From IMG/VR virus record IMGVR_UViG_3300022555_000010, positions 87,774-151,773 of that record: a stretch of DNA of 64,000 nucleotides; one strand, written 5' to 3'. A program made the position numbers and the translations under genes. Positions 8,901 to 24,467 of this stretch are shown here, piece after piece (the stretch's first letter is position 1; each line of letters begins with the position of its first letter). A model generated the notes under the pieces. The model saw only the letters and a program-made list of their open reading frames with translations, was not told where the DNA came from and did not search any database. This DNA comes from a virus.

Positions 8901-9581
8901 GAGATCTCCAGGATTCGTGAGGAGGCTGGACAGGCTCCCAAAGTGGAAATCAAGAAGGAAGAGAAGCCGGCCGTGATTCGATGCAAGGTGACAGTTATCA
9001 CTCCGACTTATAAGCGTGATCCGGCTGTGATTCGTCGGTGTCTGGGAAGCATGTTGATGCAGACGGAGACAGATTGGGAGCAATTCGTGTGTTCTGACGG
9101 TGCCTTGGAAGAACCCGCTCGTGATCTTGTAAATAAGATTGGAGATCCACGGATTCGGTATTTTTACACGGAAGGCAAGAAGGAAGGGGACTACGGGAAC
9201 ACGGTCAGATCGGAGATGATGAAGTATGCCAGGGGGAAATATGTCCTATTCCTTGATGACGACAACCTGATTCTTCCTCATTACCTGGCGACGATGGTAT
9301 CAAAGATGGAGAATTCCCCGGACTGTCAATTCGCAGTTTGCCAGATTATGCATTTTGGTCCATTGAATGAACAGGAAGAGGGGAAGGCTCCAAAAGTGTT
9401 GCTTGGGGACCCGGTAAAGTTGTATCATATTGATCCATTGCAGGTTCTGGTCCACCGGGATATAATGCAAAAGGTTGGTTGGGACACAAAAGTTGGGTAT
9501 TTATCTGATGGAGTGTCATTAGAACGATTAGCGTCCTACAAGCTCGTTCGGGTGAATGAGGTATTGGGGATTCATATGTAA
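5973..9581 (+). CDS. multidomain glycosyltransferase (GT4 plus several GT2 domains), 1202 aa
   Basis: SGG..; EGFGMPPAEAMACG (GT4); VPVYNE...EADE (GT2); FDNGS; ITPTYKR...CSDG...YVLFLDDDN (GT2). Confidence 0.85.
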   Translation: MKVVFVNTVDSDQPSGGAKQAYRHIDVLNQLGIDSCFAHPTPGFRYTWFDNNTPTIHTDDVELTADDFMIFGELVHEVPRVKGWDRCGKVVLCQNDYNALGGFKLDLANTRQTYREAAAILCPSENAVSNIQFIFPSARVMRFKYSFDRAPLEFSAEKESLVAVMPRKRGHEIDAVLAVIGIRWVPPGWNLLRLDNMSEKDVARALKRCAAFLSLGEKEGFGMPPAEAMACGCITVGYTGYGGNEFMLPGISFPVPDGDFIGLSRELMRIFKMPQEERLEIAHKASTFIRATYSTKDEVESIKEAWGKITRPVIDLRSDARSRMRKEVAAYVPVYNEGPYLENILKWLIPRVGEIFVAESIIPWSPNAKAGGESKAIVDKVLAECPESKNVIRYMRVGDQEDKDDPLLREAKQRNSILEKIREYGFKFVWMVEADEFYRDNEAEEMWSWFFDRVTEGARTANCHWHTYWRSIHWRIDPPENFRPNVAFLSDCKFRHGRILEAKDEQMSVEVPDRVCMIRHYSWARTPADVKNKLAAWGHSKELDPDWYEKKFMAWKPGDDMFNVHPTNPESYKMIVRCDLPLPEAMKGHPFIDMEIIEDKNKEVFVMPEVKESVKVRTNRIKVVIMHHNKPENADKLWEQLSPVFDDVEIFDNGSDPGKVPIHTTRSRENVYWTGTWNEVMATCHEYDAVWVIGCDIELMYQPEDYRTAIESSLPFGCWSPCIDGRAHDFMQEKHYGDKHPEEVKNIEGMALAMSGSLMRQIGELVPGSKIGFGQDFWMCYRSRKAGMRNIIDGRVSVHHPEGIGYNEAEAHRQMEETFGRAYGPDFRTTIFEYDQRFEKNIIGETKMPEGKRFTIVTVDNGWGLSEFIRVTSKFPDIRRIVMRKGVIDNIQMPGIEFVEYNEDLKGLVDQADIALFPRVGVANKDDYQKLLKAGVATVVRESCSQGMIEHMKTGWFFRDELWAEHWLAFLMNNPKEISRIREEAGQAPKVEIKKEEKPAVIRCKVTVITPTYKRDPAVIRRCLGSMLMQTETDWEQFVCSDGALEEPARDLVNKIGDPRIRYFYTEGKKEGDYGNTVRSEMMKYARGKYVLFLDDDNLILPHYLATMVSKMENSPDCQFAVCQIMHFGPLNEQEEGKAPKVLLGDPVKLYHIDPLQVLVHRDIMQKVGWDTKVGYLSDGVSLERLASYKLVRVNEVLGIHM

Positions 9582-9594
9582 TACTGGAGGTCTT

Positions 9595-9837
9595 ATGGCA
9601 AAGAAAGAGAAGAAGAGAGTTGTCAATGGACGATTGATCCGAGTCTTCGAGTCCAAGAGACCTAAGTTTACGCATGTGTCGAAGGAATGGGACGCAGTTC
9701 AGGTTGAGGATGTGAATGGACACAATAGTCGTTGTCTGTTGTTTACGGCCGGTGAGATTGCGGAAGCACAAAAGAGGGCTGCGAACAATGTTGAGGAGTT
9801 GACGAAGGAAGGTTTCATAATAGAGATTCTTGAATGA
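9595..9837 (+). CDS. hypothetical protein
   Basis: GGAGG RBS before ATG. Confidence 0.6.
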   Translation: MAKKEKKRVVNGRLIRVFESKRPKFTHVSKEWDAVQVEDVNGHNSRCLLFTAGEIAEAQKRAANNVEELTKEGFIIEILE

Positions 9838-9859
9838 TAGACCTGCATAATTTCTTGTT

Positions 9860-9892
9860 GTGCCAGGTCTGCGAACCTGGCACTTTTGTTTT
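9860..9892 (+). terminator. intrinsic terminator
   Basis: GTGCCAGGT/ACCTGGCAC stem plus TTTTGTTTT. Confidence 0.75.
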
Positions 9893-9893
9893 C

Positions 9894-9922
9894 GGGCCTT
9901 TAGCTCAGATGGTCAGAGCAGG
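9894..9922 (+). pseudogene. 5' fragment of a tRNA (Ile2/Met-CAT-like)
   Basis: GGGCCTT TAGCTCAGATGGTCAGAGC AG: acceptor strand plus D arm, then unrelated AT-rich sequence. Confidence 0.7.
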
Positions 9923-9971
9923 AAATTAAATTATACTTGAGGTCGCTCTTACCAATTGATATGCTGTAAGG

Positions 9972-10457
9972 ATGAAAAGAAATGATGCTTTGTTACCGTA
10001 TGACAATTATTGGATTTACAATCCAGTTGTAAGTGTGTCTTCAGGAAGAAGAGTTTGTGTTTTAGTTTCAAAGAAGGATGGATGTAAGACAAGTATTAGC
10101 TATGCTCGATATTTGATGTCAGTCGCTATCGGAAGAATATTGGATTCAAAAGAGTTTGTAGATCATAAAGATGAAGACAAGTTGAATGATGACATCTTGA
10201 ATTTACAAATATTGTCTCGTGGTGATAATAATCGAAAATATAGAATATGTGCTGGGATAAAGCCTGTTAGATTTAAATTTCGATGTCCCAGTTGTAAGTG
10301 TGTGTTCGAGAAAGATAAAAGACAGTCTCATCTTTCAAAAGGAGGAGTTTTTACGGCATGTTCAAGATCTTGTGCTGGAAAAATTCGGGCAATGATGGGT
10401 CATGGATTTTTTATTGATGTCTCAGGAAATGTAATAGGGGAAATCAAGGACCCGTAG
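9972..10457 (+). CDS. HNH homing endonuclease with C-terminal Zn finger
   Basis: VDHKDEDKLNDDILNLQILSRGDNN; CPSC...CSRSC; TAG stop lies inside the downstream tRNA. Confidence 0.8.
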   Translation: MKRNDALLPYDNYWIYNPVVSVSSGRRVCVLVSKKDGCKTSISYARYLMSVAIGRILDSKEFVDHKDEDKLNDDILNLQILSRGDNNRKYRICAGIKPVRFKFRCPSCKCVFEKDKRQSHLSKGGVFTACSRSCAGKIRAMMGHGFFIDVSGNVIGEIKDP

Positions 10458-10524
10458 CTTAATTGGTCAAAGCAGTTCTCTCATAAGGAATTGAGTCTCA
10501 GTTCGAGTCTGGGCGGGTCCACCA
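10448..10524 (+). tRNA. tRNA with CAT anticodon (probably Ile2)
   Basis: GGACCCG/CGGGTCC acceptor, CT-CAT-AA loop, TTCGAGT, ACCA; resembles bacterial tRNA-Ile2. Confidence 0.85.
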
Positions 10525-10569
10525 ATATGAAAAAAAGAAGAGACGGATAAGACTTGTCCTATTTGCAGG

Positions 10570-10968
10570 ATGATTCTTGGATTCAAACCCGGTCGCGGGG
10601 ACAGATGCCAGGAATGTAAAAACACGGTAGGTGTTGAAGATGCTTATGCCTGGTATAAGATGGAACGTCAGATGGAACTACAGTCGAAGGCTTATGTCTA
10701 CTTGTTTCCAGCATTGATGATTGTGGCGATGTTTGAAAGAATCTATGTTTACAAAGGTGGATACACCTTGAGGTCATTCTTGATTTACGACCTTGTTCCC
10801 TGGGGATTGTGGGTATTCAATGTATTCTTCTTATGGCCTGGGAAAGGGGTAAGTATCCCAGGGATGAAGGATAGATTAAAGAGGGCAAAGGATGATTTGT
10901 TTTTGAAGAAGTTGGGTGGCGAGCCAGTTCGTAAAAAAGGTGATTACGATGGGTTCGGGGAGTTGTGA
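10570..10968 (+). CDS. membrane protein with N-terminal Cys motif (true start possibly 10527 across an A7 run)
   Basis: Two hydrophobic segments; the upstream in-frame sequence encodes CPIC, pairing with CQEC. Confidence 0.55.
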   Translation: MILGFKPGRGDRCQECKNTVGVEDAYAWYKMERQMELQSKAYVYLFPALMIVAMFERIYVYKGGYTLRSFLIYDLVPWGLWVFNVFFLWPGKGVSIPGMKDRLKRAKDDLFLKKLGGEPVRKKGDYDGFGEL

Positions 10969-11000
10969 TACAGAAGGCATTTCAGGCGTTTTTGTATGGT

Positions 11001-11053
11001 AATAAAAATAGTTAAAAGATTTGTTGCATCGCGATTCGCGAATAGCGTATAGT
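11001..11053 (+). promoter_or_regulatory. sigma70-like promoter of the tRNA operon
   Basis: AT-rich UP region 11001-11020, TTGCAT 11024-11029, TATAGT 11048-11053; predicted +1 about 11060. Confidence 0.65.
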
Positions 11054-11059
11054 GAACGC

Positions 11060-11134
11060 ATGAAGACATCGTTGTCATATCTCTATCTGGTGAGTTGCTT
11101 ATTTAATAGCAACTTCCGTAGGGGTATGTCCTGA
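11060..11134 (+). CDS. leader peptide MKTSLSYLYLVSCLFNSNFRRGMS (24 aa, not in ORF track)
   Basis: ATG at predicted +1; 3' end overlaps the antiterminator strand; codons match downstream tRNAs. Confidence 0.75.
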   Translation: MKTSLSYLYLVSCLFNSNFRRGMS

Positions 11135-11200
11135 TCTGACTTCATAAAACAGGATGTAGACAAGCCCCACGGAGAGATCCGGAGGGGCTTTTGTGTTTTT
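11093..11200 (+). promoter_or_regulatory. transcription attenuator (pause hairpin / antiterminator / terminator)
   Basis: AGTTGCT/AGCAACT hairpin 11093-11114; TTCCGT(A)GGGGT 11114-11125 pairs with GCCCCACGGAG 11164-11174; ATGTCCTG/CAGGATGT nested inside; mutually exclusive terminator 11162-11200. Confidence 0.75.
11162..11200 (+). terminator. conditional intrinsic terminator
   Basis: AAGCCCC-A-CGGA-gaga-TCCG-GA-GGGGCTT followed by TTGTGTTTTT. Confidence 0.8.
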
Positions 11201-11277
11201 GGGATTTGGGTTTGTCGTGACAGAATGTCGTGAGAAGTGTCGCGAGATGATATTCGCGAATAGAGAATGAATAGATT

Positions 11278-11354
11278 GGTGGGGTAGCTCAGTCTGGTAG
11301 AGCGTCGGCCTGAAGAGCCGAGCGTCGGGGGTTCAATTCCCTCCCTCACCACCA
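11278..11354 (+). tRNA. tRNA-Phe(GAA)
   Basis: Full cloverleaf, TCGGC-CTGAAGA-GCCGA, CCA end. Confidence 0.95.
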
Positions 11355-11368
11355 AAGTTGAATAGATT

Positions 11369-11454
11369 GCTCGAATGGTGGAATGGCAGACACGTAGCCC
11401 TCAGAAGGCTATGGCCGTAAGGTTGTGGAGGTTCAAGTCCTCTTTCGAGCACCA
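11369..11454 (+). tRNA. tRNA-Leu(CAG)
   Basis: TAGCC-CTCAGAA-GGCTA, long variable arm, CCA. Confidence 0.95.
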
Positions 11455-11533
11455 GTGGATAGGGTGGAATTCCCTCGTGGGTCCGAATCCCACTCCGAGC
11501 AATCGGATGGCTGAGTGGTTTAAGGCAATCCAC
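11455..11533 (+). ncRNA. circularly permuted tRNA-like RNA (compact, YrlA-like module)
   Basis: Order: GTGGAT, variable arm, T arm GTGGG-TCCGAAT-CCCAC, acceptor TCCGA-GCAA-TCGGA closed by a tetraloop, D arm TGGCTGAGTGGTTTAAGGC, ATCCAC. Confidence 0.7.
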
Positions 11534-11539
11534 AGTTTT

Positions 11540-11576
11540 GGAAGGATGGCAGAGTGGTCTAATGCGGCGGTCTTGA
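11540..11576 (+). pseudogene. 5' half of interrupted tRNA-Ser(TGA)
   Basis: GGAAGGA TGGCAGAGTGGTCTAATGC GGCGGT CTTGA, then breaks. Confidence 0.85.
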
Positions 11577-11644
11577 TTATTGCAATTAAAAGTTGATAAT
11601 TCAACTCTTGTAGAGAGTAGTCAATACTATAAGGGAGAATTATT

Positions 11645-12106
11645 ATGCCAAGCAGGCTGTATTCGAGGGAAGTTCTTGAGCCGGTTGTTATAAATAGCAG
11701 ATCTTTTCGAGATTTGACGATAAGGCTGGGTAAGAAACCACATGGAGGGTTGATAAATCATATAAAAAAGATTGTTGTTGGATTGGGAATAGATTGTTCG
11801 CATTTCAATCGTGGGGCTTGGAATAAGGGAGTGGTTTGGACTGGAAGAAGATCGGCTGAGGAAATTTTTTCGGGAGGAAAGATAGAGCCTGCCTATCGGT
11901 TGAAGAGGGCGTTATTAGAGATAGGTCGTGAGTGGAGTTGCGAGGTTTGTGGAATTAAAGATTGGATGGGGAAAGAAATAGACTTTGAGATTCATCATAT
12001 TGATGGGGACAAAAAGAATAATACAATTGTAAATTTGAGGATTGTTTGTCCTAATTGTCATTCTCAGAGTGGAAATTCAAGATTCAAGGGAAGGAAACAT
12101 GGCTGA
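11645..12106 (+). CDS. HNH endonuclease
   Basis: CEVC...EIHHIDGDKKNNTIVNLRIVCPNCHS; TGA stop inside downstream tRNA. Confidence 0.9.
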   Translation: MPSRLYSREVLEPVVINSRSFRDLTIRLGKKPHGGLINHIKKIVVGLGIDCSHFNRGAWNKGVVWTGRRSAEEIFSGGKIEPAYRLKRALLEIGREWSCEVCGIKDWMGKEIDFEIHHIDGDKKNNTIVNLRIVCPNCHSQSGNSRFKGRKHG

Positions 12107-12181
12107 GTGGTCTAAGGCGGGTGTTTTGAAAACATCAGATGTTAATAGCATCCGTAGGTTCAAATCCTACTGTTTCCGCCA
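12093..12181 (+). tRNA. tRNA-Ser(TGA)
   Basis: GGAAACA/TGTTTCC, GGTGT-TTTGAAA-ACATC, long arm, GCCA. Confidence 0.92.
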
Positions 12182-12182
12182 G

Positions 12183-12237
12183 TTGAAAACCGGAGTACCG
12201 AGAGGTATCGGGGGTTCAAATCCCTCTCCTTCCGCCA
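12183..12237 (+). pseudogene. 3' half of interrupted tRNA-Ser(TGA)
   Basis: TTGAAAACCGG, variable arm, GGGGG-TTCAAAT-CCCTC, TCCTTCC-GCCA, which pairs perfectly with GGAAGGA at 11540. Confidence 0.85.
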
Positions 12238-12239
12238 GT

Positions 12240-12332
12240 TTTTCGAGGATCTTTTCGAGGCATTTAACTCGTTGAGATTCAAATGTTTGTGAGAATTTTC
12301 AGTCAAGATTTCGAGGATCTTTTCGAGGATCT
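12240..12332 (+). repeat. four copies of TTTCGAGG(ATC), in two tandem pairs
   Basis: Copies at about 12241, 12253, 12309 and 12321. Confidence 0.7.
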
Positions 12333-12438
12333 GATTGAAGACCTTATCCCTGGTGGATATTGTAATGGCAAATTGACAACTGAATAGTGAATAGCAAGGC
12401 GGCTGATCCGGGTTCTTGTACCGGGTCAGTCGTTGTAT

Positions 12439-12515
12439 GGGCGATTAGCTCAATTGGTCAGAGCGTCTGGTTTACACCCAGAAGGTTATCGGTTCGACCC
12501 CGGTATTGCCCACCA
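12439..12515 (+). tRNA. tRNA-Val(TAC)
   Basis: TCTGG-TTTACAC-CCAGA, CCA. Confidence 0.92.
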
Positions 12516-12525
12516 TTTTTTTTAT

Positions 12526-12564
12526 TTCCGTATTCTGGGGAAGTTATGGCAATGTGTAGGTATG
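12526..12564 (+). promoter_or_regulatory. bipartite phage promoter motif, copy 4
   Basis: TTCCGTATT-N14-GCAATG-TGTAGGT-ATG. Confidence 0.75.
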
Positions 12565-12843
12565 AACTACTACGATGAAATGAATAAAGTGCCGGAACAT
12601 CTCAAGGGGATTGCTGATGTCGTTAAGACACACACCCATCGAGATGTAAATGAGAAAGAGGCGTCCGAGATTGCCTTCGCACTCTTAGAGCTTGAAGGGA
12701 ATAAAGTCATAATCAAAAAGATTGCGGATTACATTCAGAGTCAGAATCAGCAGTTGCGATGGGCTTACGAGAGACACAACAAGTTCGCCGATGATGTTTT
12801 TCAATGGGTTCGCTGGGCGGCTAATTGGACATTGAGGAAATAA
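12562..12843 (+). CDS. hypothetical protein
   Basis: Starts at the motif ATG; the longer track start overlaps tRNA-Val. Confidence 0.65.
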   Translation: MNYYDEMNKVPEHLKGIADVVKTHTHRDVNEKEASEIAFALLELEGNKVIIKKIADYIQSQNQQLRWAYERHNKFADDVFQWVRWAANWTLRK

Positions 12844-12852
12844 GGGAAATAT

Positions 12853-13299
12853 ATGGCACACAAACGCAAAGACACTTTGACGAAGTCTCCGGACTGGTGG
12901 AGACATCTTCGGCCTTTCAACAAACGGAAGGTGGCCAAGGCGGAACGTCGTGCAGCCAGGGCGGAAATCACGGAAGAGGACTATGAGGATGCCAAGGGGC
13001 TTGGTCTTCACAAAGAGCCATCGAAGATGAGATGGTTGAGGGAGACGGATGGGGATTCGATTATTCCCCAGGGTTGTTACTGTTACGATCAGAAGGGAAT
13101 TTGTCCTTACTGGGACAAGGCGGAGAATAAACAGGAACAGAATAACGGGTATTGCTGGTTTCAGATGAGCGGGGATTGGGACGAGAAGGGCTGTGATCTT
13201 CTTTGGGATCAGTGTAAAAACTGCGGGAAGAACGATGTTGATGTTCCCGAGGGTATAATACAGGTGATAGCAGAGAAAGATGAGGAACCAAAATGTTAG
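12853..13299 (+). CDS. hypothetical Cys-rich protein
   Basis: ORF with CYCY, CPYW and CKNC. Confidence 0.6.
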   Translation: MAHKRKDTLTKSPDWWRHLRPFNKRKVAKAERRAARAEITEEDYEDAKGLGLHKEPSKMRWLRETDGDSIIPQGCYCYDQKGICPYWDKAENKQEQNNGYCWFQMSGDWDEKGCDLLWDQCKNCGKNDVDVPEGIIQVIAEKDEEPKC

Positions 13300-13568
13300 A
13301 AGTTGATTTAAGGAATGCTTTTGAGCCGGGGAGTAATGCTGACAATTTCTCGGTGTTGTTGCTTCGGTTGATTGCCAAGGCAGACGGGGACAACAAACTG
13401 AAGTTAAGTTTGGGTTATCCTGTTCATGTGAAGGCAGTTTGGATTTATCAGAATCAGTGTCCGTATCGGGATATGAATCGGAGTGTGGTTGACTGGGCGG
13501 CAATCGCAACCCAGGCTTCCGAAGGAAAGGATTGTGATGAATGTCAAAATCATTTGGAGAGGCTTTAA
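13293..13568 (+). CDS. hypothetical protein
   Basis: GAGG RBS; LIAKADGDNKLKL..GYP. Confidence 0.6.
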   Translation: MLEVDLRNAFEPGSNADNFSVLLLRLIAKADGDNKLKLSLGYPVHVKAVWIYQNQCPYRDMNRSVVDWAAIATQASEGKDCDECQNHLERL

Positions 13569-13894
13569 GCCAGGGCATCCCGATAGTGTTGCTTCGTAAG
13601 GGTGATTGTCCGGAGGTTATTGGTGAGCCGGGGAAGGAACCAGAGGCTTTGGATACTTTGGATAAGATGAAGATAGTGAAGTTGACACGACCCCAGGATG
13701 GTCGAAAACCGAAGGGTGCGATACAGAATTTCTCCGAGAAGCCGGTTCTGACAGATGAGGAACTTCTGGAAGAGTATGGTTGGGAGATGGAATGCTTGAG
13801 TCCGTTTGAGTTGAGGCATAAGGATGGGTCATTCTTATGCGGGAATCAGGCGAAAGATCTATTGAGGCAGTATCGAGAGGATGAGAAGAAATGA
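13541..13894 (+). CDS. hypothetical protein
   Basis: Overlapping ORF in operon. Confidence 0.5.
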   Translation: MSKSFGEALSQGIPIVLLRKGDCPEVIGEPGKEPEALDTLDKMKIVKLTRPQDGRKPKGAIQNFSEKPVLTDEELLEEYGWEMECLSPFELRHKDGSFLCGNQAKDLLRQYREDEKK

Positions 13895-13896
13895 TT

Positions 13897-13932
13897 CCCC
13901 GCATGGTGAAATTGGCAGACACAACGGACTTA
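13897..13932 (+). pseudogene. 5' half of tRNA-Leu (TAR anticodon, probably TAA)
   Basis: CCCCGCA TGGTGAAATTGGCAGACAC A ACGGA CTTA, then breaks. Confidence 0.8.
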
Positions 13933-13992
13933 CAATGCAGTGATGTCTTAATTATTATTTTATAATTCTTATCATAGTAGGGAGATACTACT

Positions 13993-14553
13993 ATGAAAAA
14001 GACTGATAATGAGATACGTGAGGCGGTTGTTGGATCTATTACGTATGCCGGGATTTTGATTAAATTAGGTCTTGTCCCAATGGGGGGAAATTACAAGACA
14101 ATAAAGAGAAGAATACGAATTCTTGGTATTTCGACAGAACATCTTAAGGGGAAGTCATGGAATCGGGGAGGAGTTGGAAAACGAAGTTATGCGAAGAAGT
14201 CCTTGGAGAGTGTAATGATAGAAGATTCTTCGTATTCGACTTTTAAACTCAAGAAGAGATTGTTCAGAGAGGGAATTTTTAAGAAAAAATGCAACAAGTG
14301 TGGAGGAGAACAGTGGCTGGGAAAGCCAATGCCATTAGAATTAGAACATAAAAATGGGAATAGTCACGATCACAGGATAGAGAATTTAGAGATACTTTGT
14401 CCCAACTGTCATTCTTTTACGGATACATATCGAGGTCGGAAGTCTCGTGGGAAAAAGATTATGAAGGAAGAACGACGATGTTCTAACTGTAATGGTCGGG
14501 TGTCGTTAGGGTCGAAATCTGGATTGTGCTATTTATGTTCTCCAAAGTTTTGA
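13993..14553 (+). CDS. HNH endonuclease (paralog of 11645-12106)
   Basis: CNKC...LELEHKNGNSHDHRIENLEILCPNCHS; C-terminal CxxC..CxxC. Confidence 0.9.
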   Translation: MKKTDNEIREAVVGSITYAGILIKLGLVPMGGNYKTIKRRIRILGISTEHLKGKSWNRGGVGKRSYAKKSLESVMIEDSSYSTFKLKKRLFREGIFKKKCNKCGGEQWLGKPMPLELEHKNGNSHDHRIENLEILCPNCHSFTDTYRGRKSRGKKIMKEERRCSNCNGRVSLGSKSGLCYLCSPKF

Positions 14554-14557
14554 AAAT

Positions 14558-14634
14558 GCCGGAGTGGTCCAATTGGCAGAGGCAACAGTTTTAAAAATTG
14601 TGTGTTGCGGGTTCGACTCCCGCCTTCGGCACCA
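14558..14634 (+). tRNA. tRNA with TAA anticodon (Leu) and short variable loop
   Basis: GCCGGAG/CTTCGGC, ACAGT-TTTAAAA-ATTGT, 5-nt variable region, ACCA; 77 nt. Confidence 0.85.
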
Positions 14635-14764
14635 AGGAGAAACAAGATGACGGACGAGGAGATCGGACGGAGGTTGTTGAATATTGACGCCATTGCATAT
14701 TCTCAATGGAGTTATTTGACAAGAACTTTGGGATGTATTGTGGTTGATGACGAAAGAGACTTTT

Positions 14765-15223
14765 ATGAAATTCAAGATACCGTGTGAGTGGACGGTGAGG
14801 ACGGTCGAGGTGATCGAAGCCAAAAATTTGGTAGATGCACAAGATAAGGCTTTCAAGTTGACTCGACCAAAGACATTGGAAGGCTGCAAGATTGAAGATC
14901 CTATTGGTGGGGGTCTGGATTGGAAGACATTCAACAAGATGTATCCACCAAAGCCTCCGGCTGATCCGATGGAGGGTTGGACAAGGACAACTGATCCTGG
15001 GCCGTATCAGGGCGGGCAATGGGTGAAGGAGGCGAATGGGTGTGAGGTATTTGTCACCGGGGATACTGGGCCGATAGAGGTCGGGATGGGAATGACAACC
15101 TATTCGTGGAGTGTGTCGAAGCCTGGTCGTAATGACACTCTAACCTCGAAGAAGGATTTCGATAGGATTGAAGAAGCTCGTGATGCGGCATTGAAGGCAT
15201 CGGAACGATGGAGTAAGATGTGA
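14765..15223 (+). CDS. hypothetical protein
   Basis: ORF in operon. Confidence 0.55.
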   Translation: MKFKIPCEWTVRTVEVIEAKNLVDAQDKAFKLTRPKTLEGCKIEDPIGGGLDWKTFNKMYPPKPPADPMEGWTRTTDPGPYQGGQWVKEANGCEVFVTGDTGPIEVGMGMTTYSWSVSKPGRNDTLTSKKDFDRIEEARDAALKASERWSKM

Positions 15224-15396
15224 AGCCTGAAGTGATTAAGGGGATCAGGAAGCAGTCTGGGATGACTCAGACGGAGTTTGCAAAGGCGATGAGAGTATCA
15301 TTCGCGACTGTAAACAGATGGGAGAAAGGACATTTTGTTCCACTCCCGGACAGACTGGATCGTTTGAAAGAGTTTAAACAAGGAATCGTGAAATGA
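15220..15396 (+). CDS. XRE-family helix-turn-helix regulator (58 aa, not in ORF track)
   Basis: IKGIRKQSGMTQTEFAKAMRVSFATVNRWEKG; GTGA and ATGA coupling to neighbours. Confidence 0.85.
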   Translation: MKPEVIKGIRKQSGMTQTEFAKAMRVSFATVNRWEKGHFVPLPDRLDRLKEFKQGIVK

Positions 15397-15764
15397 AAAA
15401 CAGGTTTGCGGAGATCGCGGAGAGAGTGGCGGCTAAGTATCAAGACATTGGTCATCAGCCTGGAGATAGACTCTGGTGGGTTGGCAATGATGGTAAGGTC
15501 AAGACCTTGGTGTCAACTGGTAAGGAGTTCCACCACGATATTGACGAGAATATCGATATGGATGCTCGGTGGCGTGGCCGTTTGGAAAAGGGTGGTATGT
15601 GTACTCTGTTACCACCGGTGCATCTGTATGCGAAGTTCAAGGATGTGGAGGATATGCCTCTCCCGGATTCAGCGATGACGAAGTTGGAGAAACTGGGAGC
15701 GAAGCACTTCTATCTGGATACTCAGCGGGGTATGAATCGGATCAGTAAGACGGTTGTCCGGTGA
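15393..15764 (+). CDS. hypothetical protein
   Basis: ATGA-coupled; N-terminal RFAEIAERVAA. Confidence 0.6.
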   Translation: MKNRFAEIAERVAAKYQDIGHQPGDRLWWVGNDGKVKTLVSTGKEFHHDIDENIDMDARWRGRLEKGGMCTLLPPVHLYAKFKDVEDMPLPDSAMTKLEKLGAKHFYLDTQRGMNRISKTVVR

Positions 15765-15776
15765 ACTGGAGATTTT

Positions 15777-15812
15777 GGAAGAATGCCGTAACTGGTAGCG
15801 GGTCTGATTCGA
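15777..15812 (+). pseudogene. 5' half of tRNA-Ser(CGA)
   Basis: GGAAGAA TG CCGT AACTGGTA GCGG G TCTGA TTCGA, then AT-rich sequence. Confidence 0.8.
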
Positions 15813-15857
15813 TTGTAATAATTGTTTGATATTTGCACCTAAAGTGGAGGTGCGAAT

Positions 15858-16706
15858 ATGAATAAGTGCAGATTTTGTGGAAAAGGCGGATTTGAAAAGC
15901 GGGGACTTCGAGAACACGAGAAGTATTGTCGGATAGTTCATCGTTATGTTGATATTGCGAAGGAAGAACTGGAAACAGGATTGTTGCTATGTGAGACGGG
16001 ATGTGGTCTGCCAGCCAGATTTACATTGAAAGTTGGAAAGGTTTGTTGTTCTGAGTTTGTTCAGTCTTGCCCGGAGACAAAACGAAAAAACAGCCTTTCA
16101 AAGAGTGGTGAGCATAATCCAAGAGGCATGTTGGGTAAAAAGACCGGAAGACTCGGAAGGAAGAATGTGGATGTCTTTGGTGTTGTCGTGGCAGGTCGAA
16201 TAAGTAAAAAGATTTCCAATAGGTTGACTGGTAAAGTTACAGGGATGGCATCAACAGTTGGAAATGAGATTGAGAGAGTTCGTAAGATTTCTGATGCGGC
16301 AAAAAAGAATACTTACGGAAATTATGGAGGATACAAGAGGGGAGCAGGAAGAGGGAGACACGGATGGTATAAAGGTATCTGGTTTGACTCTTCCTGGGAA
16401 TTAGCGTGGATCATATTCAATATTGATCACGGGATTCAGTTTGAGAGAAATAGTGATAGGTTTGAATATCAATGGGATGGAAAGACTCATAAGTATCTTC
16501 CAGACTTCAAAATGGCTGATGGGAAGTATGTAGAAGTTAAATCGTGGTTGAATGACAAGGTGGTTGCAAAATTAAAGGCGTGTCCAGGAGTTCTTGTTTT
16601 AATGAAGAAGGAGATGGAGCCGTTTATTCAGTATGCAATTAGAAAATATGGTAAAGACTTTGTTAAGGATTTTGAGATTAAAAGGAAGAATGTCCGAACT
16701 GGATAA
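15858..16706 (+). CDS. PD-(D/E)XK endonuclease (TnsA-N-like) with Zn-finger N-terminus
   Basis: DSSWELAW...YLPDF...YVEVKSW; CRFC..H..C; TAA stop inside downstream tRNA. Confidence 0.8.
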   Translation: MNKCRFCGKGGFEKRGLREHEKYCRIVHRYVDIAKEELETGLLLCETGCGLPARFTLKVGKVCCSEFVQSCPETKRKNSLSKSGEHNPRGMLGKKTGRLGRKNVDVFGVVVAGRISKKISNRLTGKVTGMASTVGNEIERVRKISDAAKKNTYGNYGGYKRGAGRGRHGWYKGIWFDSSWELAWIIFNIDHGIQFERNSDRFEYQWDGKTHKYLPDFKMADGKYVEVKSWLNDKVVAKLKACPGVLVLMKKEMEPFIQYAIRKYGKDFVKDFEIKRKNVRTG

Positions 16707-16771
16707 GGAGTCTGCCTCGAAAGCAGATGTACCGAAAGGTATTGGGGGTTCGAGTCCCTCTTCTTCCGCCA
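16684..16771 (+). tRNA. tRNA-Ser(CGA)
   Basis: TCTGC-CTCGAAA-GCAGA, long arm, GCCA. Confidence 0.92.
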
Positions 16772-16974
16772 CACCGAGTGAGATTGTTTATATCAGTAAG
16801 GGAGTTTTGTTGAAGGAGATGGCGGATCTGGGCATCAATATCAACAGTGTTACGGCTGATGGGATAGTGAGTTCGGCAAAGATGGTGATTGTTGATGGGA
16901 TTGTGGTGAAGAATCGGGATGGTAAGACCGGGGCGAATGTCTCGGGAACGATAGTGGTCGATGATGAGAAAGAT

Positions 16975-17049
16975 TGGCGAGTAGCTCAATGGTAGAGTAT
17001 CCGGCTGTTAACCGGGTTGTTGGAGGTTCAAGTCCTCTCTCGCCAGCCA
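16975..17049 (+). tRNA. tRNA-Asn(GTT)
   Basis: TCCGG-CTGTTAA-CCGGG, GCCA. Confidence 0.92.
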
Positions 17050-17055
17050 AATATT

Positions 17056-17379
17056 ATGAAACAAGAACTGATAGATCTATGGCAGCAGATGGCCGATCTG
17101 ACAAAGGAAAAGTGTCAGAAGTCCTGTAGGAATATGGGAGCATGTTGCAGTGGAGAATACTGTGAACTCGCCGCCGAGACGATGGAGAAGGCCGGTGAGA
17201 AGGTTCCCCCGATGCCTTTCGTAGTGGACGGGAAGTGTTCTATTCCTCCTCATTACAGGCCGATATGTGCATTACATCAGTGTGATATTGGCAGTCTTGG
17301 GTTTATGAAGGGGGACCCGGACTTGACAAAGAGATATTTTGATTTGAGATTCAAGTTGGAAGACTTGGCAGAATTTTAA
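17056..17379 (+). CDS. Cys-rich hypothetical protein
   Basis: CQKSC..GACC..YC...C...RPICALH. Confidence 0.6.
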   Translation: MKQELIDLWQQMADLTKEKCQKSCRNMGACCSGEYCELAAETMEKAGEKVPPMPFVVDGKCSIPPHYRPICALHQCDIGSLGFMKGDPDLTKRYFDLRFKLEDLAEF

Positions 17380-17542
17380 TTCCGATAGTACCTTCAGCAA
17401 TGGGATACTTCTAAAAAAACAGGTGCCCGAAAGGGCGTGAAGGTTCGAGTCCTTCCTCTGTGGCTAATAACTGCGGAGTGGTGGAATTGGCAGACACGCC
17501 TGCAAAAAAAGACCCATTGTGATTTTCGGTATTGTAGGAATT
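17378..17542 (+). ncRNA. YrlA/Y-RNA-like ncRNA: long bulged terminal stem plus permuted tRNA-Leu-like module
   Basis: AATTCCGATAGTACC/GGTATTGTAGGAATT and TCA(G)CAATGGG/CCCATTGTGA stems; A7 linkers; module 17420-17502 runs variable arm, T arm, loop-closed acceptor, D arm. Confidence 0.75.
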
Positions 17543-17546
17543 TTAT

Positions 17547-17582
17547 TTCCGTATTGAGACAAGACATCTGCAATGTATGTGC
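17547..17582 (+). promoter_or_regulatory. bipartite phage promoter motif, copy 5
   Basis: TTCCGTATT-N14-GCAATGTATG; here followed by an AGGAG RBS rather than an immediate ATG. Confidence 0.7.
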
Positions 17583-17598
17583 ATTAGGAGATGAGATT

Positions 17599-17817
17599 AT
17601 GTTGGGACTTAAAAAGAGGGCTGAGGATCGTAAACTGGAAAATGATCTATACTTATCTCGTCGTGGGTATGATTACGCGGCCGGGAGATTGTTACGAGGT
17701 GGGAATGTCAAGAATCTCTATGAGGAGGCGGCGAGATGTGATGATCATAGAGAGCCTTTTACGATTGGGGTTTGTGATGCAGTCAGGGACTGGGAGAAGA
17801 AAGGGAAAGTGGGATGA
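17599..17817 (+). CDS. small hypothetical protein, paralog of 19711-19926
   Basis: MLGLKKRAE...RRGYD..AG.LLRG...A(V/I)RDW shared with 19711. Confidence 0.65.
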   Translation: MLGLKKRAEDRKLENDLYLSRRGYDYAAGRLLRGGNVKNLYEEAARCDDHREPFTIGVCDAVRDWEKKGKVG

Positions 17818-18563
17818 AAGTGTTTTTAACGAGTGGGGGAACAAAGACCCCGATAGACAGTGTCAGGCACGTAGGGAATATGTCAAAGGGGACATTTGGT
17901 TGTCATCTCTGTAATGCCTTTTTGAAAATGGGGCATACGGTTCACTATTTTTACGCCAAGGACAGTAAGGCACCTCACGATTTCAGGCTGAATCTCAAAG
18001 AGGTTGGTTCGAGAGAAGCGATGGAGACATTATTGGAGAGCTATGATTTCCTCGATGATTTTGGGGATCGATACATACCAATGGAATATTCTGATTTCAA
18101 CTCCTATGCAGAAGGTCTGAAAAAGATGCTTGGTTCTGGTTTGTTTGATTTGCCGGATGTTGTGGTTTTAGCGGCGGCAGTAAGTGATTATGCCCCGGTA
18201 AAGCACGAAGGCAAGATCAGTTCGGATCTGGATAAGATGGTCATCGAGTTCGAGAAGACTCCGAAGTTGATCAGGCAGATTCGGGATTTCTGTCCGAAAA
18301 CATTCCTGGTGGGGTTCAAGTTGCTTGTTGGAAGCACCCAGGACGAGTTGCTGGAGGCGATGAAGAAGCAGATGAAAGTTGCGAAGACGGATATGGTTGT
18401 CGGGAATGACCTGAGGGATATCCGGGCGGACAAACATTCGTTGACTATTTTGAGGGCAGACGGGGGAATCTCCGGGTTCTCTGGGATGTCGGGTGATAAA
18501 TTGGCGGAATATCTTGTGGGATCTATTGATATCTTACAGGGAAGAAAGAAACGGTTGGCATGA
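17814..18563 (+). CDS. coaB: phosphopantothenate--cysteine ligase
   Basis: TSGGTKTPIDSVRHVGNMSKGTFG, AAAVSDY, KISS, LVGFKLL, VVGND. Confidence 0.9.
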   Translation: MKVFLTSGGTKTPIDSVRHVGNMSKGTFGCHLCNAFLKMGHTVHYFYAKDSKAPHDFRLNLKEVGSREAMETLLESYDFLDDFGDRYIPMEYSDFNSYAEGLKKMLGSGLFDLPDVVVLAAAVSDYAPVKHEGKISSDLDKMVIEFEKTPKLIRQIRDFCPKTFLVGFKLLVGSTQDELLEAMKKQMKVAKTDMVVGNDLRDIRADKHSLTILRADGGISGFSGMSGDKLAEYLVGSIDILQGRKKRLA

Positions 18564-19708
18564 ATATTTTACTTGGATTGACAGGAAGTGTGGCGACAAA
18601 GATTGCCCCGAAGATCATTGAGGCTTTGGAGGCGATTCCGAATTGTTCTGAGGTCAGGGTGATAATGACTGACAAGGCGGCAATGTTTTACAACCCGGAG
18701 GCATTGGCCAGGGTTTCAGGGGTCAAGGTCTACACGGAGGGAGACGAGTGGACCTGGCGGAAGGAAATCAAGGCGATCGGTCATGCTACGGTTCAATGTC
18801 TTGCAACAGACAAATGGGAAAAGGGACTACCCATTCAGCATATTGAGTTGGTGAAGTGGGCTTCTTGTCTGGTGATTGCTCCGGCGACGGCGAACACGAT
18901 TGGGAAGATGGCCAATGGGCTGTGTGACAATCTGCTGACTTCGGTGTTTACGGCCTGGGATCGGAATCGGCCGGTGATTATGGCACCGGCGATGAACACC
19001 ATGATGTTACATTCGCCTGCGGTAGTTCATAATATGGAGACGTTGCAGAAGATGGGTGTTCTGATGGTGCCGACAGTCAAGAAGGAATTGGCTTGTGGGG
19101 ACACAGGAGATGGGGCCTTGGCAGATGCCTCGGATATTGCTCGGGTGGCCGCCAGGGAGATTCAGTGGCTATTTCCGTTCAATCTGGTGTCACCGATCAG
19201 GGGAATCCCGGTTGGGAGTCACCCAGGAGCCTTTGGAGCAATGAGGAAGCATGACAGACATTGTGGAGTGGACTTGTATTGCAACAATGGGACGCCGGTT
19301 GTTTTGGTTGAAGATGGCCGGGTGGTAAGCATTGAACCATTCACCGGGAAAGATGCTGGATGTCCTTGGTGGCTGGATACGAAGGTTGTGAAGGTGGAAG
19401 GGGCCAGTGGGGTCGTTTGTTACGGAGAGATTGAGCCTCGGGACTATGTTCAGGTTGGAAAGGTGTATCGGAAGGGGTGTCAGATTGGGAATGTGATCCC
19501 GGTGTTGAAGCCGGAGAAGCATCGTCCGGATATCCCTGGGCATTCGTGTTGTATGCTTCATCTTCAGATGTTCAGTCACGGGACATATAATCTGAAGGAT
19601 GAGTTCAACAGTCACGAAGAATTGCCGGACTATATCATTGATCCGACACCGTATCTGTTGGGGGCGGTTGGGGCAAAGGATATTAAGAAGTTGGATGTGA
19701 AGGTGTAA
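18560..19708 (+). CDS. coaC: phosphopantothenoylcysteine decarboxylase fused to an M23-peptidase-like domain
   Basis: LTGSVA, HIEL, PATANTIGKMANGLCDNL, PAMN, LACGDTGDG; C-terminal HCGVDL..GTPV..DGRV...LHLQ. Confidence 0.85.
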   Translation: MNILLGLTGSVATKIAPKIIEALEAIPNCSEVRVIMTDKAAMFYNPEALARVSGVKVYTEGDEWTWRKEIKAIGHATVQCLATDKWEKGLPIQHIELVKWASCLVIAPATANTIGKMANGLCDNLLTSVFTAWDRNRPVIMAPAMNTMMLHSPAVVHNMETLQKMGVLMVPTVKKELACGDTGDGALADASDIARVAAREIQWLFPFNLVSPIRGIPVGSHPGAFGAMRKHDRHCGVDLYCNNGTPVVLVEDGRVVSIEPFTGKDAGCPWWLDTKVVKVEGASGVVCYGEIEPRDYVQVGKVYRKGCQIGNVIPVLKPEKHRPDIPGHSCCMLHLQMFSHGTYNLKDEFNSHEELPDYIIDPTPYLLGAVGAKDIKKLDVKV

Positions 19709-19710
19709 CA

Positions 19711-19926
19711 ATGTTTGGATTTAAGAAAAGAGCCGAGGCAAAGAGGCACGAAGAGAACCCGAGTCCTAGGAGGAGAGGATATGATTCTATCGCAGGGGGA
19801 ATATTGAGGGGTTGGAATATTGATTCACACATTGATAATTTTATGTTGGAGGGACCGGGAAGTGTTGAGGATGGCGAGGAAGAGGCGATAAGGGATTGGA
19901 TGAAAATGAGAGGATTTAAACAATGA
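19711..19926 (+). CDS. small hypothetical protein, paralog of 17599-17817
   Basis: MFGFKKRAE...RRGYDSIAGGILRG...AIRDW. Confidence 0.65.
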   Translation: MFGFKKRAEAKRHEENPSPRRRGYDSIAGGILRGWNIDSHIDNFMLEGPGSVEDGEEEAIRDWMKMRGFKQ

Positions 19927-20055
19927 GAAAGTCTACAGCGAGTCCAAAGAGTACGAAGATCAAGAATGGTTGCACTCGGACGAAGAGGAGTTCAGGGTGT
20001 GTCGGGTCGGCAATTGCTCGGACTCGTGAACGAAGGAAGTGTCGGTAAGTATTTT

Positions 20056-20087
20056 GACGGGTTAGCCAAGTGGTTAGGCAGGTCTTG
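20056..20087 (+). pseudogene. 5' fragment of a tRNA (Cys-like)
   Basis: GACGGGT TAGCCAAGTGGTTAGGC AGGTCTTG resembles the 5' half of bacterial tRNA-Cys. Confidence 0.65.
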
Positions 20088-20142
20088 AAAAAGCATTGAC
20101 TTGACAGGCCAGTAATAGCATTATTCAGGGAATGGAGGTGCT

Positions 20143-20856
20143 ATGAAAAAGAACGAAGAAATTAAAATCAAGGCAAGAGATTTGAGGTCGCTCGGATTAT
20201 CTGTTGGAGATATTTCAAAAAAACTTTCAGTCTCTTATGGCTCAGTTGGTAACTGGGTTCGTGACATTATTCTGGACGAAGAACAGAAGAAGAATATCTC
20301 AAATATTCGTCAAAAGGAAGTTCAGCGTGTTTTCGATCTTCCCTTAGAGATTTTTGATAAAATGATTGAAGACGGCTTAAGCCAGAAAATGATTGCTGAT
20401 AAATTGGGAGTATCTTTGGGAATAATGAGTCGAGTGTTCAAATCGAAGGGGCTATCAGGAAGAACGCCTAAAGGTCAGAGACCCGTATTTGGTTTGAGCG
20501 ATTGTAAGATTTGTGGAGTTCCCAGAAAAACATGGCGAGGAGGAACTTGTCCTACTTGTGTGTCGAAAATTAGACGTTTAAAAACGAAGATTAGGGCAGT
20601 AAAGGAGTTGGGTGGGAAATGTAAAAGTTGTTCGTGGGAACCAACAAGTCGTGAGGTTGCGGCGATGGAATTCCATCATAAAGGTGGAGATAAAAAAGAA
20701 TTTGAGATAGGTAAGAAGATGAATCATAAGTGGGAAACTTTACTTCCAGAAATCAGGAAGTGTAAATTGTTGTGTTCTCGATGTCACAGGATTGAGCACA
20801 GTCGAGTAGATCCATTGTTTGATTTTATATTTGATCAAGATGATAAGATGCGATGA
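20143..20856 (+). CDS. HTH + HNH-like endonuclease
   Basis: Two HTH segments; CKIC..CPTC; CKSC...MEFHH...KCKLLCSRCHRIEH; TGA stop inside downstream tRNA. Confidence 0.8.
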   Translation: MKKNEEIKIKARDLRSLGLSVGDISKKLSVSYGSVGNWVRDIILDEEQKKNISNIRQKEVQRVFDLPLEIFDKMIEDGLSQKMIADKLGVSLGIMSRVFKSKGLSGRTPKGQRPVFGLSDCKICGVPRKTWRGGTCPTCVSKIRRLKTKIRAVKELGGKCKSCSWEPTSREVAAMEFHHKGGDKKEFEIGKKMNHKWETLLPEIRKCKLLCSRCHRIEHSRVDPLFDFIFDQDDKMR

Positions 20857-20920
20857 CCGAGAGGTTAGGTGGTTCTCTGCAAAAGAACATAGGCTGGTTC
20901 GAGTCCAGTTCGCATCTCCA
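20847..20920 (+). tRNA. tRNA-Cys(GCA)
   Basis: GTTCT-CTGCAAA-AGAAC, U73 discriminator, CCA. Confidence 0.92.
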
Positions 20921-20929
20921 AAATTTTTC

Positions 20930-21016
20930 GGGGAGTTAGCCAAGCGGCAACGGCGGCAGACTGTAAATCTGTTTCTCTAACGAGGTTCAAAGGTTCGAGT
21001 CCTTTACTCCCCACCA
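20930..21016 (+). tRNA. tRNA-Tyr(GTA)
   Basis: GCAGA-CTGTAAA-TCTGT, long arm, ACCA. Confidence 0.95.
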
Positions 21017-21054
21017 ATTATTAGTGATCAGTAATATATCGGTGAACAGTAATA

Positions 21055-21300
21055 ATGAGCAGAAGGATCAGATACACCAAGCAGAGAGCCTTATTGGGAT
21101 CTTTGATTACAAGGGATGGTCTAAAATGTCACTGGTGTCATAGGGAATGTGACCCGAAGGCTAATAATGGAAGTCCTGGATATCCGACCGTGGAGCATCT
21201 GAAGAGGCAATGTGAGGGTGGAACGGATGACCCGGTGAATCTGGTGGTGGCTTGTTTGAAGTGTAATAGTGGGAGACATTTGCCTGGGTGGACTCCGTGA
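21055..21300 (+). CDS. small HNH endonuclease
   Basis: RDGLKCHWC...TVEHL...GGTDDPVNLVVACLKCNSGR. Confidence 0.85.
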   Translation: MSRRIRYTKQRALLGSLITRDGLKCHWCHRECDPKANNGSPGYPTVEHLKRQCEGGTDDPVNLVVACLKCNSGRHLPGWTP

Positions 21301-21520
21301 TTGATGGAGTGGTCAATGGATTGATTCAGGAAGCGTCCTACCCGGATTGCAGTTATTGGCAGTTGCATATTTGTGGATGTGGGCAGGCTTCGGTTCGGCA
21401 TCTTGTTGAGGGAGATCACAAGGGCTGGATCATGGGATGTAATTGTCGGACCGGGCTGGATTTGTTGGGATGGTTGCCGATAGGAGTTGTCCCGGCAGTG
21501 GATGAGGTAGATGAGTCGTT

Positions 21521-21610
21521 GGAAGGATGGCAGAGTGGTAATGCAGCGGTTTGCTAAACCGTACAAGGTGTAAAAGTCTTGCGTGAGTTCAAGTCTCACT
21601 CCTTCCGCCA
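21521..21610 (+). tRNA. tRNA-Ser(GCT)
   Basis: GCGGT-TTGCTAA-ACCGT, long arm, GCCA. Confidence 0.95.
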
Positions 21611-21772
21611 AAATGTGTTTGGGGTGGAACCCTGATATAACGGTCCGTGATGCTGAAAGCTGAAGCGGGTAGCTGTTGATTGCTTCCAAAGCGACACAGA
21701 AAGTCGGTTGACTGTAGTGCGAGGTCAGCCTTTTAAATAGGCAGTAAAAACCTGCATCGGACGCCAATTATC

Positions 21773-21811
21773 TTCCGTATTCTGTGGTACAATCTGCAAT
21801 GTCTTTATATG
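21773..21811 (+). promoter_or_regulatory. bipartite phage promoter motif, copy 6
   Basis: TTCCGTATT-N14-GCAATG-N7-ATG. Confidence 0.7.
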
Positions 21812-21979
21812 AAACTCCCAAACTACTTCTTAGATGATTGCTGTAAGAAGAAGCCGGGAGTCGAGTGGGATGGTGGGGAGATCACGGCTAAGTGCCGCAA
21901 GTGTGGGGACTTGGTCACAAATCGAGAGATGTGGAAATTGATGATTGCCTGGAATAAGAAAAAAAGAGGGTTGAAATGA
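21809..21979 (+). CDS. small Zn-finger protein (56 aa, not in ORF track; loosely Lar-like)
   Basis: CC...CRKCG...AWN; starts at the motif ATG, ATGA-coupled to next gene. Confidence 0.55.
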   Translation: MKLPNYFLDDCCKKKPGVEWDGGEITAKCRKCGDLVTNREMWKLMIAWNKKKRGLK

Positions 21980-22344: not shown

Positions 22345-22354
22345 GGGATAATTT

Positions 22355-23246: not shown

Positions 23247-23285
23247 ACAATCTCGGGGATGTTCCGGGAGTGTATAATGTGACTT

Positions 23286-24453: not shown

Positions 24454-24467
24454 TTATGAGATAATTT

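Follow-up and report, generated by a model that had tools for sequence, protein, structure and literature searches.

A likely leader-peptide transcription attenuator, inferred in silico, ahead of a phage tRNA array

What is a short open reading frame doing between a promoter and an intrinsic terminator at the head of an array of phage tRNA genes? We examined this question in a window of 64 kb, the last part of a 151,773-b IMG/VR virus record that is 72% complete; near-identical DNA was present in lake and freshwater metagenomes from several studies. Our reading, which we hold to be likely (probability of about 0.75), is that the element is a ribosome-mediated (leader-peptide) transcription attenuator. 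The transcription start site, the translation of the frame and the link between translation and transcription are inferred, as are the direction in which the switch works and its reach into the array, because there are no transcript or ribosome data.

As summarized in Table 1, the promoter and leader occupy the interval between a 132-aa ORF (10570-10968) and the tRNA-Phe gene (11278). The -10 element TATAGT is followed by 6 nt and then by the ATG at 11060, and the frame reads ATG AAG ACA TCG TTG TCA TAT CTC TAT CTG GTG AGT TGC TTA TTT AAT AGC AAC TTC CGT AGG GGT ATG TCC TGA. The promoter matches the consensus at 8 of 12 positions, which is below the threshold of a consensus scan, and the terminator was missed by the consensus scan because its stem is bulged. 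The gap between terminator and tRNA-Phe is 77 nt in this phage, and the region is bracketed by strong plus-strand terminator-like sites at 9860-9883 and 26480-26513. The initial annotation had proposed the TTGCAT/TATAGT promoter, the ATG and the 24-codon frame, which the sequence bears out exactly, and a U-tailed terminator (11162-11200) lying 77 nt before tRNA-Phe, which also held; the antiterminator strand that it placed at the 3′ end of the ORF (11114-11133) was recovered by folding as 11114-11137. Its +1 position remains an inference. The promoter puts the transcription start at or near the A of the ATG, so that the mRNA would be leaderless, a conclusion drawn from sequence alone for a host whose promoter and terminator rules are unknown.

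Table 1. Features of the leader and of the tRNA array behind it (window coordinates)
Feature	Position	Strand	Details and basis
Sigma-70-like promoter	11024-11053	+	-35 TTGCAT 11024-11029, 18-nt spacer, -10 TATAGT 11048-11053; sequence read
Leader ORF	11060-11134	+	24 codons plus TGA (11132-11134); MKTSLSYLYLVSCLFNSNFRRGMS
Regulatory codon run, codons 4-19	11069-11116	+	16 consecutive codons, 12 different array tRNAs
Region 1, 5′ strand of the long 1:2 hairpin (putative pause / anti-antiterminator)	11074-11090	+	RNAfold MFE; RNAalifold compensatory changes
Central hairpin inside the ORF	11092-11115	+	GAGTTGCT / AGCAACTT; RNAfold; RNAalifold
Region 2, 3′ end of the ORF and stop codon	11114-11137	+	Predicted to pair with region 1 or region 3; ribosome-mask folding
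Region 3, 3′ strand of the antiterminator	11152-11174	+	Includes the 5′ strand of the terminator, AAGCCCCACGGA (11162-11173)
Intrinsic terminator	11162-11200	+	Bulged GC-rich stem 11162-11190, GAGA loop, tail TTTTGTGTTTTT; RNAfold -18.7 kcal/mol
Inferred regulated unit	11278-25909	+	15 tRNA genes among HNH and other ORFs; ARAGORN, Rfam
Terminator-like site, strong, 15 pairs	26480-26513	+	After the last tRNA gene; possible end of the transcription unit

Some neighboring features are recorded in their own right. The 12-mer ATTCGCGAATAG (core palindrome ATTCGCGAAT) occurs in exactly two copies, at 11034-11045 within the promoter spacer and at 11252-11263, 15 nt before tRNA-Phe, and the pair brackets the leader. 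It is possible that the two copies form an operator for some regulator; the 12-mer was not found in the homologous leaders described below, and it was rejected as a general phage motif, there being only the two leader-flanking copies and matches no more frequent than chance. The 132-aa ORF lies on 20 contigs, and as the longest of them measures 342 kb, the phage genome is perhaps well above 300 kb. The 132-aa protein had no relative other than itself in a set of 5.8 billion proteins. Farther along the window, a 1028-aa ORF (42134-45220) has a large-terminase (PHROG) match only over residues 524-974, about the C-terminal half of the protein. A CCA-adding tRNA nucleotidyltransferase of phage type is encoded at 50504-51991.

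Using ARAGORN and Rfam, we located 15 tRNA genes downstream of the leader and one CAT tRNA gene upstream (10448), all as initially annotated, and detected no other tRNA gene in the whole 151,773-b record; since the record is incomplete, further tRNA blocks may exist. The array runs Phe, Leu-CAG, Ser-TGA, Val-TAC, Leu-TAA, Ser-CGA, Asn, Cys, Tyr, Ser-GCT, Leu-CAA, Leu-GAG, Leu-TAG, Ser-GGA, Gly-GCC, and 10 of the 15, those for Leu, Ser and Tyr, are of the long-arm (class II) type. Promoter-like sites occur inside the array, and because of these and of its 15-kb span, the leader may govern the first tRNAs only.

Other observations concern the tRNA genes of this phage and its relatives. The motif GAATAGATTG stands directly 5′ of tRNA-Phe (11267-11276) and of tRNA-Leu(CAG) (11359-11368), possibly as a context for 5′ processing. 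Bacterial tRNA-Leu normally has a long variable arm; tRNA-Leu genes of just 77 nt, without that arm, are present at 14558-14634 of the window and at 4601-4677 of contig L019. An amber-suppressor-type tRNA with a CTA anticodon lies upstream of the leader, outside the regulated block, in L033 (15726-15799) and L036 (6564-6641), and ARAGORN called tmRNA genes in three phage relatives (L025, 1820-2214; L026, 1511-1918; L033, 23360-23510), one of them within the tRNA array. In L034 (16541-16575) and L032 (23443-23455) the terminator is followed directly by a 5′ part of tRNA-Phe and then by an HNH gene; an intact tRNA-Phe follows the HNH gene in L034, and the L032 sequence ends too early to show one. 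In L033 a degenerate tRNA-Phe-like sequence (20668-20745) comes right after the terminator, with an intact tRNA-Phe 70 nt further.

For the codon content of the leader, the 24 codons read by array tRNAs were grouped into 15 classes, one per tRNA, and the whole record was scanned in six frames. The leader ORF samples 14 of the 15 array tRNAs, lacking only CTA (Leu-TAG), and nowhere else in the record are 14 classes found in 24 open codons. Within 13 of its codons, 12 different tRNAs are represented; among 303,000 six-frame windows of 13 codons no other reaches 11 or 12, the maximum elsewhere being 10. Run length alone is not unique, as an in-set run of 22 codons, low in diversity, lies on the antisense strand of a gene; it is diversity, not run length, that sets the leader apart in the record. 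Neither the window nor the arrays yielded a second leader-like frame. The counts of the initial annotation (14 of 15 tRNAs, no CTA, a 16-codon run of 12 tRNAs) thus held. Its chance estimate of about 1e-6 was crude, given the 22-codon run, and its conclusion that the match is improbable is upheld by the diversity.

Array-set codons make up 32.5% of all codons in the genes of this phage. When leaders were redrawn synonymously by phage codon usage with the peptide kept, 10.5 to 12 classes were expected versus the 13 to 14 observed, with p = 0.003 in this phage and 0.03 to 0.34 in the homologues, and 12 of 12 leaders exceeded their own recoding mean; these p-values are not independent, since the leaders are related. 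These data showed that the codon signal resides mostly in the amino acid set (Leu, Ser, Val, Phe, Tyr, Cys, Asn and Gly) together with the presence of several Leu and Ser residues, and that the choice of isoacceptor adds modestly. The earlier description of the frame as a "roll-call" of isoacceptors therefore held only in part, being largely a match of amino acid sets.

Is the arrangement peculiar to this phage? Related metagenomic phages yielded 13 homologous leaders, and behind every one lies a syntenic array whose first gene is tRNA-Phe or the HNH-interrupted 5′ half of it. G003/L007 was reached via the portal protein, and the G003 contig, which ends in the syntenic array (Phe, Leu-CAG, Ser-TGA, Val, Leu-TAA and onward), carries homologues of the promoter, the short ORF and the terminator directly before tRNA-Phe. 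A DNA-pattern search of metagenomes returned L019, L020 and an identical copy of this phage. A 1202-aa glycosyltransferase encoded 1.5 kb upstream of the leader was used as bait and gave 25 relatives at 44-72% identity (45-72% in the leader-yielding contigs L027-L036); leaders were present in L027, L028, L029, L030, L033, L034, L035 and L036. The leaders of L031 and L032 were found blind by the codon statistic alone, which flagged one window per locus, and both flagged windows contained a promoter, a short ORF and a terminator along with tRNA-Phe or the 5′ half of it.

The statistic gave the leader as the six-frame maximum in the ten loci tested (with a tie in L030), and loci of relatives without an array scored 9-11. 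Among 321,824 background windows of 17 codons, none reached 13 classes and two reached 12, and the leaders had 11-14. Across the 14 phages the leader ORF is 24 to 28 codons long, and TTGnnn-N17/18-TAnAnT sites precede the other leaders, a count that leaves out L028, whose upstream region was not read.

Other searches had narrower returns. In phage GenBank records, megablast of 10400-12600 gave just a 63-nt tRNA match, and IMG/VR searches with the 132-aa protein, the terminator pattern or the glycosyltransferase alone gave nothing. L017 and L018, reached via a tRNA-Leu pattern, were rejected as unrelated phages with very large arrays and no leader-like window under this tRNA set, and the metagenome match L022 was rejected as a chance match. 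The portal relatives G001, G002, G004 and G005 had no array on their partial contigs. In contigs of four lake and freshwater DNA runs the leader was identical, without population variation, and no RNA run carrying the phage was found.

The 12 tabulated leaders each sample 13 or 14 of the 15 tRNA classes, and L032, in addition to these, samples 14 by our own count. In a codon alignment of 12 leaders, 181 of the 190 codons of the sensing window belonged to the tRNA-matched set, and the residues encoded were Ser (59), Leu (43), Val (21), Asn (18), Phe (15), Tyr (14), Cys (12), Gly (5), Thr (2) and Met (1); Ile, Ala, Pro, Trp and charged residues were absent, despite the frequency of Val and Leu. 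Counted as distinct codon states by column, 70 of 77 lay in the set, which implies at least 54 substitutions. The probability of such in-set constraint is 1e-26 at phage codon usage and 4e-9 even if composition places 61% of codons in the set. The columns flanking the window (codon 3 on one side and, on the other, three or four codons ahead of AGG GGT) were mostly outside the set.

A given codon has no fixed place in the leaders. The leader peptides share only about half their residues, and TCG, at codon 4 here, stands at codon 6, 10, 11, 12, 14, 15 or 16 elsewhere. A signal at the level of codons is present in boxes of which the array covers only half: Gly used GGY in 4 of 4 window states (37% in usage) and Val used GTR in 10 of 14 (42% in usage). 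Leader codons and tRNA genes do not correspond one to one: no sensing window has CTA, and the G003 leader has TCC and lacks TCG, when its array as fetched has Ser-CGA and lacks Ser-GGA. The co-variation of codons with tRNA genes that the initial annotation suggested testing is thus imperfect, with the qualification that the complete tRNA sets of most relatives were not in hand.

Several features of the alignment are signs of translation, which is itself inferred. The leader frame is open in 14 of 14 phages, and the other two frames have 1 to 4 stops in the 12 leaders compared; in-set codons number 18-24 in frame 0 versus 6-13 in the other frames; and MAFFT gaps within the ORF measure 3, 6, 9 or 12 nt, whereas those past the stop are not multiples of three. 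In most leaders having a 5′UTR, an AGGAG-like site lies 5-10 nt before the start, which is often GTG. This phage is the only leaderless case, with an ATG start and no Shine-Dalgarno site; leaderless translation requires an ATG start.

These data bear on the alternative that the element is a non-coding structured RNA, or simply a terminator or insulator of the upstream unit, in which the open frame is incidental to a conserved hairpin. In its favor, the ORF lies wholly within a stable conserved hairpin, nucleotide conservation is largely structural, and no Shine-Dalgarno site is found in this phage. Against it stand the frame open in all 14 phages with ORF indels in multiples of three, the Shine-Dalgarno sites of the leaders having a 5′UTR, the frame specificity of the codon set and the conserved promoter directly upstream. 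We regard this explanation as very improbable.

Similarly, the ORF could be a small peptide gene with its own terminator, encoding a short membrane- or lipoprotein-like product (MK, a hydrophobic stretch and an invariant Cys), with the tRNA match a by-product of composition. The invariance of the Cys, the lipobox-like L-V-S-C or L-V-G-C of some leaders and the conservation of the frame, which is consistent with translation, would fit. However, residues swap freely within the eight-residue set (Ser/Leu/Tyr/Val/Phe), and there is almost no Ile, Ala, Met or Thr, although peptides of that kind commonly contain them. The lipobox [LVI][ASTVI][GAS]C is not conserved (S-L-C, S-S-C, S-L-S-C; N-V-S, S-L-S, F-S-L and F-S-S at positions -3 to -1), and a peptide gene leaves unexplained both the 2:3/3:4 covariation described next and the site directly before tRNA-Phe. 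There is thus very little to recommend this rival over the attenuator.

The attenuator reading requires alternative RNA pairings, and these were examined by folding. RNAfold gave the transcript from 11060 a minimum free energy (MFE) of -53.3 kcal/mol (z = -4.56), with a long hairpin that takes in the entire ORF (region 1 at 11074-11090, the central hairpin at 11092-11115, region 2 at 11116-11130, with further pairs outside these) and the terminator (11162-11190) next to it. Full-length folds of G003, L019 and L020 gave the same picture, and RNAalifold recovered both helices from eleven leaders, with compensatory change in 19 of 40 consensus pairs; in L034 the central-hairpin stem is wholly replaced and pairing is retained. 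Terminator stems of -17 to -23 kcal/mol with a T tract were obtained in the 9 leaders folded, and in the other five a terminator-like hairpin and T tract were identified by reading.

In the antiterminator, 11114-11137 pairs with 11152-11174. This 2:3 duplex has an energy of -22.4 kcal/mol, the best of its row and column in a matrix in which regions 2 and 3 were swapped among leaders, and the duplex is -17 to -30 kcal/mol in 7 of 8 lineages, with L030 weak (-9.7 kcal/mol). Region 3 varies by lineage (AAGCCCCACGGA, GAAGCCCCTCTCC, GGCCCTTCCCGGA, GAACCTCACCCGGA, ACCCCTTCCTCGGC) and region 2 changes alongside, such that cognate duplexes averaged -21.3 versus -16.1 kcal/mol for swapped ones (permutation p = 5e-5).

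The effect of a ribosome was modeled by masked folding, in which the transcript was cut before region 4 and a footprint was laid from -15 to +13 relative to the A site. With the A site at codons 2-15 in this phage, the 5′ strand of the terminator was predicted to pair with 11114-11137, with a gain of up to -15 kcal/mol, which shrank to -3 to -6 kcal/mol once the A site lay between codon 17 and the stop, because region 2 was then under the ribosome. A footprint at codons 4-16 left region 3:2 pairing of -10 to -20 kcal/mol in 8 of 9 leaders, and one at codon 19 or later, or at the stop, left about -1 to -5 kcal/mol, except in L029, where about -10 kcal/mol remained with the ribosome at the stop. 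The model thus predicts attenuator logic in 8 of 9 leaders, an early stall freeing the antiterminator and a ribosome at the stop masking it, and the codons at which a stall would permit antitermination (about 4-16) coincide with the in-set run (4-19).

Without a ribosome, and with the transcript cut before region 4, the 2:3 pairing was the MFE structure here and in L019 and L020, so the untranslated default may be read-through rather than termination. In G003, L019, L020 and L035 the T tract is followed by tRNA-Phe within less than 10 nt; this leaves no room for another promoter, and transcripts from the leader promoter must therefore cross the terminator to reach the tRNAs.

The in silico evidence shows the parts and how they are conserved, the constraint on codons, and the alternative pairings; the attenuator would operate as follows. 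Transcription would begin at the conserved promoter, yielding in this phage a leaderless mRNA that starts with AUG, and a ribosome would translate the 24-codon frame while RNA polymerase advances. Nearly all of codons 4 to about 16-19 would be read by tRNAs encoded downstream. If reading is slow, because the total supply of charged tRNA (host plus phage) is short, the ribosome would sit on region 1, regions 2 and 3 would pair, no terminator would form, and the polymerase would enter tRNA-Phe and the rest of the array. If reading is fast, the ribosome would reach codons 17-24 or the stop and cover region 2, regions 3 and 4 would pair, and transcription would stop at 11200. As the array tRNAs would speed the very step that is sensed, the circuit would be a negative feedback on decoding capacity.

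In this scheme the leader would sum ribosome dwell times over about 13 tRNA species. Having just one to three codons for each tRNA, it probably integrates transit time rather than answering to one species, and its sensitivity to any single tRNA may be low because each is sampled only once to three times. This differs from hisL and pheL, which have tandem codon runs and hence far more codons per tRNA.

A closer rival accepts the attenuator but holds that the signal is amino acid starvation (Leu, Ser and others), or ribosome availability and the coupling of transcription to translation, the codon set being that of host-slow codons. The same structural evidence fits this version; classical attenuators read charged tRNA, and hence amino acids as much as tRNA; and single codons per tRNA suit an integrated measure of speed. 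On the other hand, the codon set equals the set of the array right behind the terminator in 14 phages, the codons of upstream phage tRNAs (CAT, CCT, CTA) are excluded from it, and extra tRNA genes do not relieve amino acid starvation. We therefore consider this rival unlikely and favor tRNA supply as the signal.

How does the proposed element compare with known systems? The multivalent attenuators of enterobacteria include the ilvGMEDA leader, which senses Leu, Val and Ile, and the thr leader, which senses Thr and Ile. The phage element resembles them in its short leader (translated, as we infer, in the phage), several kinds of regulatory codon, alternative 1:2, 2:3 and 3:4 hairpins, an intrinsic terminator, and the position of the stop codon, at which a ribosome that terminates would cover region 2. 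It is unlike them in that they sense two or three amino acids through tandem runs and control enzyme genes, whereas the phage leader covers eight amino acids and about 13 tRNA species, mostly by one to three codons each, stands before tRNA genes and is inferred to lie on a leaderless mRNA here. The trpL, hisL, pheL, leuL and pheM (pheST) leaders work by the same mechanism, and pheM controls a gene of the translation apparatus, but each responds to a single amino acid and, by the Rfam search described below, none is related in sequence to the phage leader. T-boxes likewise regulate translation-related genes through a terminator/antiterminator switch that reads out tRNA status, but they do so without a ribosome, by direct binding of one uncharged tRNA, whereas the sensor inferred here is a translated frame. 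Over 9500-27000 and at E values up to 1, no Rfam leader family or T-box was matched, only tRNAs and sub-threshold plastid UTR families.

The layout of the trp/his/pheM attenuators, which the initial annotation recognized in this locus, is thus supported here and in the 13 homologous leaders, these being the equivalent short-ORF-plus-terminator units that it suggested seeking before related arrays; its switch, with an early stall freeing the antiterminator and a ribosome at the stop masking it, is supported as a prediction of masked folding. The marks of an attenuator are met in a short ORF past a promoter, a matched codon cluster, an intrinsic terminator, an antiterminator overlapping the ORF and, in the model, position-dependent masking; the mark not met is that the genes behind the terminator are tRNA genes rather than biosynthesis or synthetase genes. 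A leader-peptide attenuator is not known to control genes other than those for amino acid biosynthesis or aminoacyl-tRNA synthetases. A search of the full-text literature found no paper on leader-peptide control of tRNA genes, and the earlier statement that no multi-isoacceptor attenuator has been described for a phage tRNA array held within that literature. The mechanism is thus probably textbook attenuation, and what would be new is that tRNAs are the regulated product and that the sensing is so broad.

A bolder reading, which takes up the anticodon-nuclease trigger named in the initial annotation, makes the leader an OR-gate alarm for the loss of host tRNAs. A tRNA nuclease, from the host or from a rival, or a phage-induced decay of host tRNAs would remove any one class II tRNA, the ribosome would stall in the leader, and the stall would switch the replacement tRNA set on until recovered decoding switched it off. 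The anticodon-nuclease idea is attractive because class II species (Leu, Ser and Tyr) account for 10 of the 15 tRNAs. Nevertheless, the host-nuclease trigger is speculation without supporting evidence, class II tRNA targeting was not reported for the bacterial enzyme studied in a paper on Schlafen proteins (PMC13056530), and we judge this reading unlikely. If true, it would make the leader a virus-encoded sensor of translational damage that drives counter-defence.

The role of phage tRNAs has been argued for decades, with codon compensation, replacement of degraded host tRNAs and escape from anticodon nucleases as the proposals. A leader that reads the codons served by the array behind it would offer a directly testable circuit, in which tRNA genes are placed under feedback from decoding speed. 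Since the codon statistic found two leaders blind, it could serve as a search rule for more. Attenuation would reach beyond the supply of amino acids to that of tRNAs, with eight amino acids covered instead of one to three, and the leader would constitute a compact natural sensor of decoding capacity.
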